Positions 26,183 to 61,946 of a DNA stretch of 64,000 nt are shown here, one piece after another; the first letter of the stretch is position 1, and the number at the start of each line of letters is the position of its first letter. The stretch is taken from the NCBI GenBank assembly GCA_951406725.2, contig OX597825.1, positions 60,574,001-60,638,000 of the forward strand. Direction: 5' to 3'. The position numbers and the translations under genes were made by a program. The stretch comes from Octopus vulgaris (Eukaryota). The notes beneath the pieces were generated by a model, which had not been told where the DNA came from, searched no databases, and saw only the letters and a program-made list of their open reading frames with translations.

Positions 26183-26350
26183 ATGCCACTTAAATCTGAA
26201 CACTACTATAGAAATATTCTTTTAAAAAACTTTTCTTCTAATTTTTCTAAATTTAATTATTTAATCGTTACAGTTGAAAGGTCTCAAAATGACCGAAACC
26301 GGTACTGAAATGTTCACTATAAATTATTTTAGCATTTTCTATTTTTACTG
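26183..26350 (+). mobile_element. Solo pLTR-like repeat carrying a hammerhead-like motif (26271-26307)
   Basis: Homologous to the arms of the 31351-31851 foldback; sits between (TA)n and (TG)n. Confidence 0.7.
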
Positions 26351-26380
26351 TGTGTGTGTGTGTGTGTGTGTGTGTGTGTG

Positions 26381-26640
26381 TGGTTCCGGATTCAGTGTCA
26401 CTGTCTTCTGCTATAGCCTTGGGCCGACTAGAGCCTTATTAGTAGCGCACGCTTGTGTGTGCAAGCGCGTCTGTGTCTTTTTGTCTGTGTTTGTCTCCCA
26501 CTAAGGCTTGATAACCGGTATTCGTGTGTTTAAGTCCTCGTAAAGCAGCAGTTCAGCAAATCAGATTGATAGAATAAGTACCGGCCTGAAAATATGTACT
26601 GGGATCGATTCATTCGATTAAAAATTCCTTCTGGTCTCCA
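26381..26640 (+). mobile_element. Degraded family A-related SINE
   Basis: tcttctgctatagccttgggccgac...cagttcagcaaa...gatagaataagtac similarity. Confidence 0.65.
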
Positions 26641-26770
26641 ATGGCTAAGAGTCCTATCATAACTGTTGCATTCACTTATATCTGGTGTTTGCTGCATTTG
26701 CCTTTCTATTACTTGCACAGAAAAATGAGTGTAAGATATATAAAAATATAGCTATTTTATCTTATATAAG

Positions 26771-27075
26771 TAAAGGCGCATGGCTCAGTGGTTAGAGAAT
26801 CGAGCTAACGATCGCGAGGTTGTGAGTTCGAATCCTGGACCGGGCTGCAGGTTGTGTTCTTGAGCAAGACACTTTATTTCACGTTGCTCCAGTTCACTCA
26901 GCTGTATCGGCCCCTTTGCCTTTCCCTTGAATAACACTAGTGGCGTGGAGATGAGAGACCGTATGCATGGGCGACTGCTTGTCTTCCATAAACAACCTTG
27001 CCCGGACTTGTGCCTGGGAGGGTAACTTTCTAGTTGCAATCCCATGGTCATTCATGTCTGAAGGGGGTCTCAGCA
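26771..27075 (+). mobile_element. SINE head type D (OR2/CORE-like), alternative tail
   Basis: tggctcagtggttagag A box, gagttcgaatcc B box, CORE-like gttgtgttcttgagcaagacact; 12-bp TSD atcttatataag at 26759-26770 and 27076-27087. Confidence 0.88.
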
Positions 27076-28329
27076 ATCTTATATAAGAATGCATATTCTT
27101 TTTCGGAGTAAAGCAATCATGGACAATTATCTATCGATCTATCTATCTATCTATCTGTCTCTATCTATCAAACTATCTATGTATCTAGCTGTCAATCTAT
27201 CTATGTATCTATTTATTATCTATCTATCTCCTTATCTATCTATCATATATAGATATGTACATATATGTATGTATATATATATATATATATATATATATAT
27301 ATATTACATATATGTATGTATATATTGATATAATTACTTATCTGTGTATATACATGCAAACACACTCACACACTTATATACAGGCACACATGTACGTACA
27401 TGTAAATAGATACATCATTAGATAGATAGATAGATAGATAGATAAATAGATAGATAGACAGACATACAGACATACAGACAGACAGACAGATTGATAGATA
27501 GATTGATTGATAGATAGATAGATAGATAGATAGATAGATAGATAGATAGATAGATAGATAGACAGATAGATAGATAGAGCAGTAGGGAGACACATAAAGA
27601 AAAAATATACACTCTGATACATAAAAAATTAACGTCAATAGCAGAGAATTTTAATTCAAAATGCTTTTGTTGTTGTGAATGGAAAGAAATTGATTTTCCT
27701 CGATAATTTTGAATGTACTCTTTCAATATTTCTGAATGGTAACAATTAGACAGCAGAGGTTAGAATTAAATGCACTTTGTTGAGCTTATCACCTTGCACT
27801 TGTTTCTTAATAAAATATATAACAATATTCACAAGCATATTATGTACATACATACATACAAAAATACATACATACATATACACATTCATACATACACGCA
27901 CATCATATATGTGTGTGTATGAGAGTGCGTGTCTGCGTATGAATTAAAACAAACGGGAGTATTTGTTCATAAATTGCTTACATGACCCAACTAGGTTTAT
28001 GAAAAATATTCTGCTATTTTCTTTGGCTTTCTGTATGCACTCTAAGTTGTGACCAACTTTAGAGTGCAACGAAAGGCAATTCTGCAGAATGTGCCTTCAG
28101 ATATATGCAAATGCGCATGGAACTCTAAACACTCGCTGTTTGTCGAGCACATTAAATTTAAATAGCAATGCATTTTTGAGTGTGACGAAAAGTAACGTGA
28201 TATCTATCATAAGTGGCGCGATTTTTTCAACGGAGTTAGTTGATATATATGCTTCGGATGTAACGGTGTATACTTTTGATCTTTAATTACCTAACTTTGA
28301 CAGTTTGAATAAATGAGCCGACATCAAAA

Positions 28330-29350
28330 TGACTGCCCTGCTGGAAGCCCGACAGATGTAAAGGAAAGTAATTGAGTTTTTTGTTGCCTTAGGAGAGATT
28401 CCGGTAAACATTCAAAAAATCTGAAGCGTGCTTACAAAAATAAAGCTTTAGACTTGCAATGTGTGGAGATGAGTGAGCGGTCTGAATGAGAATTCAAGAA
28501 AACAAAACGAATTGGATAATTCAACCTTAGCAGACATACCATGTAGTGAACGCCTGTCAACTTGTGTTAACACTGCCAGCAAAGAAAAAGCAGACGCTTT
28601 TGAGCTGGTAATCATATAACTAACTATAAGCTGATACCAGAAACTGTAGTTAGCCATGAAAATGTTCATGATAATATCGAGCCACGTGTAATTTCAAAAG
28701 ATTGTGCTTTCTGGATACCGAACCAACTCAGAGATGATAAGAGACCAGAAAGTGTTAATTGTTGCACCGAACACTTTGAACTCAATGAAAAAGACAACGC
28801 CATCTTTCAAAGGCTCATAAGTGGTGCTGAATCTTGGATTCAGCTATGAACAAAAACCAAAAAGACAATCAATGGAATGGTGCCATCAGACGTATTCAAA
28901 TACAAAGGATTTCAAAGCAGCTGCAAAAATCTTGGTGACTATCTTTTGAATGCTCAAGGTTCTATGTCAATTTGGTGTCAAGTGGTGAATTGTCAACTCT
29001 GAAGCATGCACTAAGAACACCTTTAAAAGTATTAAAGCAAGAACTGCCGAGTAAGACTTAATTTGGAGATGAAGAATGGCCCTCTTGAAACGGCAAAGGC
29101 TTCACTCAAGTCTCTTAACAAGGGAAGCAATCACCTCACTCGCGTGTCGCATCCTCCCTAAGACTTCCTTCTCTTTGGTCTCATAAAAGAGGAGCTGAGC
29201 TGCAAACATTATGCTTGCGGAGAAGTGAAAAATGCTGTTAGTTGTTGGCTAAATAAGCAGCCACCTGACATTTACGAAGCTGGGATACATGCCCTCATTC
29301 GTATGTAGAACACTGCCATTAAAAGAAGTGATGACTATGCTGAGAACTAG
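28330..29350 (+). pseudogene. Decayed mariner (DD34D-type) transposase
   Basis: Fragments CAFWIP (WVP motif), SGAESWI (TGDESW), PKRQSMEWCH, HPP*DFLLFGLIKEEL, YEAGIHALI...DDYAEN*. Confidence 0.85.
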
Positions 29351-59620: not shown

Positions 59621-59838
59621 AAGCGGAGAGCTGACAAAAACGTTAGCACGCCTGGCAAGATGATTTGCGGCATATCATTGTAGTTACGTTCTGCCTTCAA
59701 ATGCTGCCGGGGTTGACTTTGGATTTTATACTTTTGGGGGTCGATAAAATAAATACCAGTTGAGCACTGGGGTAGATGTAATCGATTTACCCTCTCACTC
59801 GAAAGTTTCTGGGCTTCTGCCAAAATTTGAAACCAATA
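59621..59838 (+). mobile_element. Degraded family B SINE with older tail
   Basis: gcggagagctgacaaaaacgttagcacgcc head; gccaaaatttgaaacca tail. Confidence 0.8.
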
Positions 59839-60341
59839 TTAGTTGATACTAATTCATTTATAAAAGTTGTTACATACATAATCATTTAAAAAAATTAGTA
59901 TACATGTTTGTATCTGTTTGGAAGAATTGGCAACTGGTTGATGCTATTTATGCAAATTGTGCAAAATTTAATTAACCACAGCAAAAACCATTGTGGAGAT
60001 ATATAAAATGTATTTGTAAATCTCAAATACATGACTTCTTACTATATGCAATTATCTAAATTTCTACACATAAACGCACACACAAATATATGCATATATA
60101 TGTATGTGTGTGTGTGTGTGTGTGTGTGTGTGTGTGTATGTGTGTGTGTGTGTAAGGCTAGTTGAGTTAGCGGTTGGAATAACCATCTAAGGAATAAGAA
60201 AATGCGTTTTACTACCGGTATAACTTACCTATGTTAACCCTGGGCATACATATGCAAGCATATTATGCTCATAGGATACAGGCAATAACAAAGATAAACC
60301 AGAGTTTATTAGGAATCCAATTTAAATTAAGCAGAAAATAG

Positions 60342-60876
60342 AGAAACCTTGATCAACACCAATTGACTAACATCAATTATTATTTTTAATACAAATCATT
60401 ATCCCATCTAACAGTCACTTCTGCTTCCAATGTCCTACGGTGTTGCCAAGGAACATTTTGAGAATAATATTCGTTATATTTTGTGACACATCCGACCTAC
60501 AGCGTGGAGCTTCATCAGAGTGAAGAAAAATGGATAAAGGAAAAGAGGAATAGCCTCTAGAAGAACAATGAAGATTTAGTATATTGTCTCAACGTCCTGA
60601 AGTGTTACACTGCAAAATGTTATGATTTAAATATATTAAGCCTTCATTCCTATTCTCGAAGCTCTTCCTCTTTTCTATTTTTTTATGTATTTTTCTTCAC
60701 TCTGATGAAGCTCCATGTTCCAGATCGGACGTGTTACTAAATGTGACGAATATTATTCTTAGAATTTTCATTGGCAACACAGTAAGACATTGAAAGCAGA
60801 AACAGCTGTTAGATGGGATAAAGTTTTGTATTAAAAAATAATAATCGATGTTAGCCAATTGTTGATCAAGATTTCT
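60342..60876. mobile_element. Foldback element (~220-bp inverted arms) with hammerhead-like motif in each arm
   Basis: Arms ~60342-60560 and ~60655-60876; right arm ttcact-CTGATGA-agct...agca-GAAA-cagctg-TT-agatggg (60696-60817). Confidence 0.8.
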
Positions 60877-61050
60877 GTCTGTCTGTCTATCTATAGATAG
60901 CAGTATATATCAGAAATAAGGATGCATGCAGGGTTTATATAATACGTCTTGTGCACACATTTGATTGCTTGGAGTACTGGAATAGATGTTCGGAATGCGT
61001 AACCACAACGGAACAGGAAGGAAGGCTTTATTGTATTAAGTTACAGATCA

Positions 61051-61349
61051 ATCGATCAATCCAAGCATTGCATCAATTTGAAATACACCGCCATCTTCGG
61101 ATGCATAGGACCATATAGGTTTTCAACATACAGGATGCTCCATTATAATTTTTTTTCACAGAATTTTCATCAGAAAAGAAATAGAGAATAAAAGGATTAC
61201 GTTATTCCCTATTTCTGATGCGAAATTTGCAAAAAAAAAAAAGAGAAGAATTATAATTGAGTACCCTGTATGTTGAAAACCTATATAGACTTATGCCTCC
61301 AAGGAAGATGGTGTATTTCAAATTGATGTAATGCTTGCGTTGATTGATT
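61051..61349. mobile_element. Foldback element (~125-bp inverted arms)
   Basis: caagcattgcatcaatttgaaatacacc...ataggttttcaacatacagg versus its reverse complement at ~61265-61340. Confidence 0.75.
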
Positions 61350-61946
61350 AAATGGAGCCGCCTGAAACGGCCGTAATGCGCTAACACCTTGACATCTTTA
61401 TCTTTGAATTATATATATATATTTATATATATATATGTATGTGTGTATGTATGTATGTATGTATGTATGTATGTATGTATGCATACACATATATTTAAGA
61501 GGTGAAATTGAGAGAGAGAGTAAACAGGTGGGATCCAGATAATCTTCATACAGAAAACTTATAGTATTGTTCAAATGATTTGAAATTACACCCTGAACAC
61601 TTTATCGTGGTGTAAGTCCACTGGTAATGAGTGTGGCTACAAGTGGAATCCAGGTGTGCTGATATGAACATAGAAAAACGATTGGGCTATATATATATAA
61701 GATATAAGCCTAAACACGAATATCAGAATATTTTTAGCTTTTGTTTCTCTCTATATATATGTATCCTATATATAGTTACATTAGTATATTTATGTGTATA
61801 TATTTTTGTATATCAAGCCCAAGCGTGTTTACCTGCATCTCTCTCTGCCTATTCGTGACAATTTCGTGACAACTATAGCTTTCCTCTTTGGTGAAAAAAC
61901 ATTACATACTGCTTTGTATATTAATTATATATATATGTGTGTATGT

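Follow-up and report, generated by a model that had tools for sequence, protein, structure and literature searches.

The window analysed here, a stretch of 64,000 nucleotides from Octopus vulgaris (assembly GCA_951406725.2, contig OX597825.1, positions 60,574,001 to 60,638,000 of the forward strand), contains five foldbacks, elements made of two diverged inverted arms, together with several single pieces, many of them next to (TA)n tracts. An initial annotation, made from the letters alone, had described these as a population of non-autonomous foldback elements carrying hammerhead ribozymes and derived from Penelope-like elements (PLEs). Our analysis indicates that the foldbacks are very probably the 5'-truncated 3' ends of at least nine PLE families, here called A to I, inserted at (TA)n, and that the inverted copies are likely built anew at each insertion. 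The Penelope origin was confirmed, as longer copies of eight of the nine families run upstream into Penelope-like reverse transcriptase (RT) and/or GIY-YIG endonuclease (EN) sequence, with links that range from firm to thin (thinnest for families F and G). The description as a non-autonomous foldback population fails for the same eight families: because single arms prevail, the point of inversion varies and coding sequence lies upstream, their foldbacks are better regarded as truncated insertions of coding elements. The class is already known, since PLEs leave such stubs in many animals.

Each family was searched in its own 2.8-Gb genome and the best 40 candidates by likeness to the query were scored per search. 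The first-look candidates, which are not copy numbers, amounted to 205 for family A, 3592 for B, 186 for C, 1136 for D, 730 for E, 2202 for F, 236 for G, 4236 for H and 1239 for I. All nine families are dispersed, with sharp 3' ends and ragged 5' ends that form a ladder of 5' truncations, and most scored copies of each family are single arms; where a tail reference was available (six families), 32 head-to-head pairs compare with 179 unpaired arms. The 3' end occurs with or without a tail, which measures about 36 bp in families B and C and 60-200 bp in F, I and D, and the 3' untranslated regions (UTRs) of D, E and I reach 1-2 kb. A run of (TA)4 or more was present within 6 nt after 85 of 159 tail-less 3' ends, as compared with 3.85% of 20,000 random window positions (lowest in family F, 6/27, and highest in family I, 15/16), and the suggested preference for TA tracts was thus upheld against a background. 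Family I is young, with 98-100% identity among its best 40 copies.

On the same strand and upstream of the 3' ends, both RT and EN were found for families B, C, H and I and EN only for D, E, F and G. In family B, RT, a CX4CXXC linker and GIY-YIG follow each other in four loci (L010, L013, L016 and L018), and in L316 an RT-EN region with 40% identity over 315 aa to the family B probe (E 1.6e-69) precedes family C by about 1.2 kb. Both families carry a CX2-5CxxC-type linker before GIY-YIG, as would fit the Neptune clade; a linker motif has also been described for Nematis. Family D is located downstream of a Hydra-type EN in L163, L170 and L072, and family E is linked to such an EN by profile in L351 (iE 1.4e-22) and by eye only in L187. 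Family H joins similar EN sequences in four loci (L344, L335, L319 and L340; E 1e-6 to 6e-5) and RT in one. For family F, the end of a GIY-YIG-like open reading frame (ORF) was seen in L357, in a stretch common to other F loci, and family G is weakly linked on the same strand in one locus (E 2.5e-5) and stands head-to-head with RT in another. An antisense-ORF reading of the sequence upstream of D and E was checked and dropped. The assignments are based on motifs, likeness to full-length database proteins and a profile built from ten database relatives; Pfam and NCBIfam barely detect the PLE domains (RVT_1 E 0.011, GIY-YIG E 0.028 and group II RT E 0.00064, all below cut-off).

The coding sequence of family I is the most informative. 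RT and EN bearing the marks of the Hydra clade are present in two loci, L305 and L307, whose translations include RWR (for RWK) and DKT and, in L307, also CxCX5C, CxxC and CxH around the EN end; these features, like the (TA)n targets, are shared with the Hydra clade as described in PMC8557442. In L305 an inverted 4.3-kb truncated copy comes first, then 611 bp of pseudo-long terminal repeat (pLTR), and after the tail the following ORF begins. Asparagine-rich stretches lie between RT and EN of this Hydra-clade element (L305 3938-5364, minus strand) and resemble inserts rich in N that PMC3846280 reports from Penelope families of rotifers. A database protein from an Octopus species (P0001) matches an RT fragment of family I at 97% identity; its source names it 'GATA zinc finger domain-containing protein 14-like', but judged by this likeness it is probably a mis-named piece of a PLE.

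The initial annotation had also stated that most of the elements carry a hammerhead layout. A short-helix descriptor gave one site in the whole window, at 31108-31152 (0.1 expected from 30 shuffles), because most copies have decayed; it misses families with decayed copies or a long helix II. An Rfam scan (E up to 1) contained no hammerhead family among the matches listed (150 of 233), of which the top ones were microRNA models on microsatellites. When the majority line of each family was examined with a descriptor that tolerated at most 140 nt in the helix II region and an additional base to either side, seven of the nine fitted a type I hammerhead layout in the orientation that points the 3' end at the TA tract, as compared with none on the other strand and 0-3 of 200 shuffles each. 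The 3-8 pair was kept in three forms, C-G (A, D and I), U-A (B, C and G) and G-C (F). The whole core was retained in 12/28 rows of family A, 19/24 of B, 20/30 of C, 25/30 of D, 20/25 of F, 8/24 of G and all 25 of I, and in 1/25 rows of H, where most copies have U or C at position 6, and 0/30 of E, which has only the 3' half and stem I. A CUGAUGA upstream in family E, 130 nt from GAAA, was considered as its core and rejected, having neither helix I nor helix II.

Among the nine window copies scored, three have a full core with a Watson-Crick 3-8 pair (the right arm of 60153-60876 and the pieces at 45581 and 47350), one (30706-31320) has a U3.G8 wobble and five are mutated or non-canonical; moreover, the left arms of 30706-31320 and 61050-61417 end before the motif. 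Most window copies are thus damaged, and the predicted hammerhead is a property of the family more than of the copy. In the two Hydra-type families D and I the helix II insert is about 85-90 nt long, and for family I the 85 nt between the core halves are predicted to fold into a long rod (z -4.8, 0/200 shuffles). The predicted long-helix and G3-C8 variants would escape the usual searches. Another repeat of minimal-hammerhead layout, with a mutated core at about 30540-30575, is located at about 30435-30640 (minus strand), and similar pieces recur in other loci.

Junctions, arms and tails bear on the manner in which the foldbacks arise. Five young foldbacks of family I have five different junctions, and the older families scatter likewise, so what replicates is not the hairpin. 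Within a locus the two arms resemble each other more closely than copies from different loci do. In the young family I foldbacks the arms differ at 13 of 2388 positions, versus 190 of 16219 between loci, and in the older families the minority variants common to both arms exceeded, in aggregate, the expected number (28 vs 10.8 in A, 45 vs 9.3 in B, 16 vs 6.8 in C, 15 vs 4.8 in D and 24 vs 9.9 in E). This likeness of the aligned arms would be in line with one template per locus.

The tails of the two arms are strongly coupled. In six families, 29 of 32 pairs combined a tailed with a tail-less arm, two had no tail and one had two, when about 49% mixed pairs are expected from the unpaired arms (76 tailed and 103 not; P 1.3e-6). 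This count included pairs with both ends intact and a gap of at most 350 bp. It leaves out family A (confounded by its tandem unit), families G and H (no tail reference), wider gaps, 30 F loci picked by or overlapping a junction-bearing query, and arms whose ends fall short by more than 12 nt, among them those of the window's D and E foldbacks; the family F query that was used still held about 17 nt across a junction. For the 22 mixed pairs with a gap of at most 60 bp, the tailed arm was longer at the 5' end in seven, shorter in seven and about equal in eight. In non-nested pairs, seven of the 22 (e.g. L283, L304, L058 and L375), each arm holds sequence that the other lacks, and these pairs therefore did not arise from a cDNA simply copying itself. 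Non-nested arms speak more for priming at both cut DNA ends than for a simple snap-back.

In the mechanism that we propose, the GIY-YIG endonuclease of the element would cut both strands within an AT or (TA)n tract and each cut end would prime reverse transcription on the element RNA, with the tailed arm begun at the outer start site and the tail-less arm at the inner one. Both cDNAs would usually stop after a few hundred bases, and joining of the truncated cDNA ends would leave two 3' ends facing outward. The hammerhead motif would be carried along because it is located in the 3' UTR/pLTR. The scheme fits the in vitro results reported in PMC11167929 for a PLE from anole, in which both strands are cut and extended and two RT start sites bound the tail, so that each cut end could be extended from one start site. 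A stronger form would make two-ended integration obligate, each cut (TA)n end priming its own cDNA, one per RT start site, so that every intact foldback would have one tailed and one tail-less arm, not necessarily nested; it would add working hammerheads in Hydra-clade elements, with an 85-90-nt helix II missed by standard descriptors, in a still-young family. We consider this combination possible, at somewhat less than even chances.

The nearest competitor of two-end priming is snap-back self-priming, in which the cDNA or antisense template copies itself and the endonuclease trims one end. It would explain the likeness of the arms within a locus, it predicts the tailed arm to be longer or about equal, as in 15 of the 22 close-junction pairs, and it has precedent in two studies, in which junction palindromes were read as self-priming (PMC3846280) and the tail was ascribed to endonuclease resolution (PMC8557442). 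A simple self-copy cannot, however, yield the seven pairs in which the tailed arm is the shorter one, and we regard this explanation as doubtful, although it is the most serious of the rivals.

A second possibility is that each hairpin moves in one piece, as a retrozyme-like element of the non-autonomous kind. The window copies do lack ORFs and hammerhead motifs are present, and family A is indeed a closed ORF-less unit. In 20 of 30 loci the tail leads again into the beginning of this unit of about 475 bp, and the end of the previous unit was also seen in 12 of 30. This unit is nevertheless tandem and not a foldback, with no array of more than about two units in the 30 loci; single arms outnumber foldbacks in every single-arm search, junctions are locus-specific and eight of the nine families reach coding sequence upstream. 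Movement as whole hairpins is accordingly improbable. What survives of the proposed retrozyme-like non-autonomous unit concerns family A alone, an ORF-less head-to-tail unit with a type I hammerhead, as longer copies of B-I lead into coding sequence. At L347, its one link to coding sequence, a Hydra-type RT-EN fragment is bounded by a family A copy and a diverged A-like copy, a microsatellite lying in between. Family A is probably a tandem derivative of about 475 bp, non-autonomous and served in trans by the same machinery. CUGANGA is kept in 20 of 28 family A rows, with variation mainly at the free position 7, and this retention may be a hint of selection on source elements.

Still less probable are two independent insertions into one TA tract, or errors of the assembly. 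TA tracts do draw repeated insertions, unrelated families adjoin each other at 31320/31351 and in L065, and some wide-gap pairs may have such an origin, but the arms join 5'-to-5' with gaps of 0-60 bp and no TA at the junction, their tail status is anti-correlated, and the 13-19% difference between old arms is unlike an assembly palindrome. Miniature inverted-repeat transposable elements (MITEs), or foldback DNA transposons mobilized by a transposase that targets TA, for which the outward symmetry and the TA on both sides of some elements might speak, can be dismissed almost entirely: instead of two fixed terminal inverted repeats and a uniform length we find mostly single arms with a fixed 3' end, a ragged 5' end and variable centres, a tail on one side, RT/GIY-YIG upstream and the hammerhead on the sense strand. 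The view of the initial annotation that such elements are not MITEs was thus well founded, given their polarity, single arms, one-sided tail and upstream coding sequence. A related idea, that family F is a non-autonomous element of fixed length since many copies share their start, was dropped when longer copies showed the upstream GIY-YIG-like ORF end; the common start, some 17 nt ahead of hammerhead stem I, likely marks a hotspot of truncation. Copies of F that begin at the common point with unrelated flanks include L366, L369, L371, L372 and L373, and long F copies cluster on contig C16.

Several observations weigh against the interpretation as 5'-truncated PLE ends with newly built inverted copies. 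The coding link is thin for families G and F (for F, the Pfam GIY-YIG match at E 0.028 is below cut-off), the by-eye link of family E in L187 was not recovered by profile in L314, and for family A the link is only suggestive, with one diverged locus and a microsatellite between. The hammerhead descriptor was relaxed after the sequences had been inspected, families E and H fail the core test, and the helix II insert of the family D window copy is predicted to fold no better than shuffles (z +0.8). The sharing of minority variants between arms could stem from later gene conversion and is weak in the window's own elements (2 vs 0.8 in B and 2 vs 1.3 in C), and the family A pairs, outside the tail count, comprise four mixed and four tail-tail pairs. 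The proportions are not genome-wide, since the best 40 candidates were chosen by likeness to the query, and empty sites and target duplications are unreadable because the ends lie in microsatellites. Two-end priming, finally, was inferred from the pattern in the genome together with in vitro work on another clade.

Most of the architecture has counterparts in known systems. For EN-containing PLEs, an inverted 5'-truncated copy, a one-sided tail and a bias for (TA)n are described by Craig et al. (2021, PMC8557442) and Arkhipova et al. (2013, PMC3846280), and the octopus families are alike in the truncation ladder, head-to-head inversion, one-ended tail, microsatellite targets, terminal hammerhead and C-terminal GIY-YIG. 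They differ in the lengths of the tails (about 36 bp to 60-200 bp) and of the D, E and I 3' UTRs, and the pairing of tailed with tail-less arms is given here as a count and not as a description. With regard to the Hydra clade, families D, E and possibly A have the Hydra EN type. The predicted hammerheads of I and D, with 85-90 nt between the core halves, depart from the spacers of 7-17 and 35-50 nt given in the methods of PMC8557442, and family E, without a canonical 5' core, and L305, with its asparagine-rich stretch, depart as well.

Minimal type I hammerheads of metazoan PLEs, including opposite-strand pairs 100-700 bp apart and U3-A8 cores, were reported by Cervera and de la Pena (2014, PMC4209133). 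A palindromic helix III region, a short helix I, an extra base after A9, the U3-A8 variant and opposite-strand pairs are likewise present in octopus, while the G3-C8 core of family F (20/25 rows) and the U or C at position 6 of family H were not met in the accessible text of that paper. The U.U mismatch at the helix II base of family C has been reported in PMC7229834, which together with bioRxiv 10.64898/2026.07.22.740005 treats retrozymes, in the sections available, as non-autonomous PLE derivatives. Family A resembles the animal non-LTR (long terminal repeat) retrozymes of these sources in being an ORF-less head-to-tail unit of a few hundred bases, PLE-derived and with a canonical type I core, and differs in having at most about two units and a PLE-type inversion and tail; it is known here from genomic sequence alone. 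Families B-I are not retrozymes. Hammerhead dimer cleavage is reviewed in PMC6765202. According to PMC11167929, the anole PLE inserts in vitro without need of its hammerhead, and none of the RNA reads ended at the cut site. In PMC13282606, 31 recently active Penelope-like families are reported from an Octopus species, and the word 'ribozyme' does not occur in its main text as far as this was available. Our literature search found no paper on hammerheads of octopus PLEs, although the supplements of PMC8557442 list Hydra hammerheads and may hold related motifs, and none that joins 'twin priming' with pLTR.

The pairing of tailed with tail-less arms, together with the non-nested arms, allows two-end priming and snap-back to be told apart from genomic data, at a step of PLE integration, and the youth of family I makes fresh junctions and empty sites readable. 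With thousands of candidate copies, a minority of them foldbacks, the families are also a possible source of double-stranded RNA, if transcribed. Four sequencing runs aligned to 47140-47980 consisted of contigs, were not on record as RNA and gave neither junctions nor pile-ups of starts or ends, a result that speaks neither for nor against transcription or editing. The octopus lineage is characterized by heavy A-to-I editing.

Within the window, all five inverted repeats were recovered by self-BLAST, with 81-87% identity between arms over 104-247 bp; the old arms have thus diverged by 13-19%. Hairpin energies predicted for the foldbacks of families A to E were -249, -265, -119, -312 and -150 kcal/mol, versus -127, -86, -52, -142 and -67 kcal/mol for shuffles (12 per foldback), i.e. 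about twice as stable. No ORF of 130 aa or more was found inside the five foldbacks, and comparison of the five families with each other gave trivial matches only. The initial annotation was therefore right about the existence of the five foldbacks, about their lack of ORFs in the window copies and about the unrelatedness of the five families in sequence. It had placed the loci correctly and drawn the extents of four of them too narrowly; these span 30706-31320, 31351-31889, 60153-60876 and 61050 to about 61417. Of its solo pieces, those at 26183, 42441, 45581 and 47350 are single arms, the last being longer than proposed (47167-47978), and the one at 29690 is itself a small foldback. The old copies in the window are decaying relics.

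The family A foldback (30706-31320) has a tailed left arm without hammerhead at 30706-30935 (minus strand) and a tail-less right arm at 30947-31320 (plus strand), which is followed by (TA)n and includes the candidate hammerhead with the U3.G8 wobble at about 31105-31156. Family B, a putative Neptune-type PLE 3' end, forms the adjacent foldback (31351-31889), in which the tail-less left arm (31351-31558, minus strand) adjoins (TA)n and the right arm (31595-31851, with a tail to 31889, plus strand) has a putative U3-A8 hammerhead with a mutated core. A 5'-truncated solo copy of the same family lies at 26183-26349 (plus strand) between (TA)n and (GT)n, its core being damaged. The foldback of family C, also a putative Neptune-type PLE 3' end, spans 48002-48337 with (TA)n on either side; both arms are tail-less, and the U3-A8 motif with U.U at the helix II base is damaged in both. 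Families D and E are Hydra-type PLE 3' ends. The D foldback (60153-60876) combines a left arm at 60153-60585 (minus strand) with a tail of about 200 bp and a right arm at 60588-60876 (plus strand), which ends 18 nt short and carries a candidate hammerhead with a helix II region of about 90 nt. In the E foldback the left arm (61050-61200, minus strand) stops before the motif and the right arm extends from 61202 to (TA)n at about 61417 and has a half-core of stem I, GAAA and palindrome, with no canonical 5' core.

The small family F foldback (29681-29936) joins a long tail-less arm (29681-29831, minus strand) to a short tailed arm (29850-29936, plus strand); the family core is G3-C8, and GAAA is mutated in this copy. 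The solo copy of family H, a PLE 3' end, is located at 42395-42570 (plus strand, start approximate) and has a minimal-hammerhead layout with a mutated core. The family G solo (minus strand) extends from 45455 to at least 45700, with a predicted hammerhead of full core at about 45580-45620. The young solo of family I (47167-47978, minus strand), a Hydra-clade PLE 3' UTR, is 97.4% identical to L306, has its 3' end at (TA)n and contains a candidate hammerhead at 47348-47462 with an intact core and the 85-nt helix II region. At the 5' end of this copy, an extra 27-bp piece of family C (47968-47994) faces the C foldback, from whose left end it is separated by a short TA tract.

Three further features of the window belong to none of the nine families. 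A near-complete L1/Tx1-type long interspersed nuclear element (LINE) occupies 12053-16936 (plus strand), with a 328-aa zinc-knuckle ORF, an 834-aa endonuclease-RT ORF and a 315-aa continuation past one stop. The stretch at about 27950-29470, by its appearance, is presumably a decayed Tc1/mariner-like element. Finally, 43566-43835 and 44515-44783 form an inverted pair of about 270 bp whose members are 74% alike and are separated by a 679-bp spacer richer in G+C.

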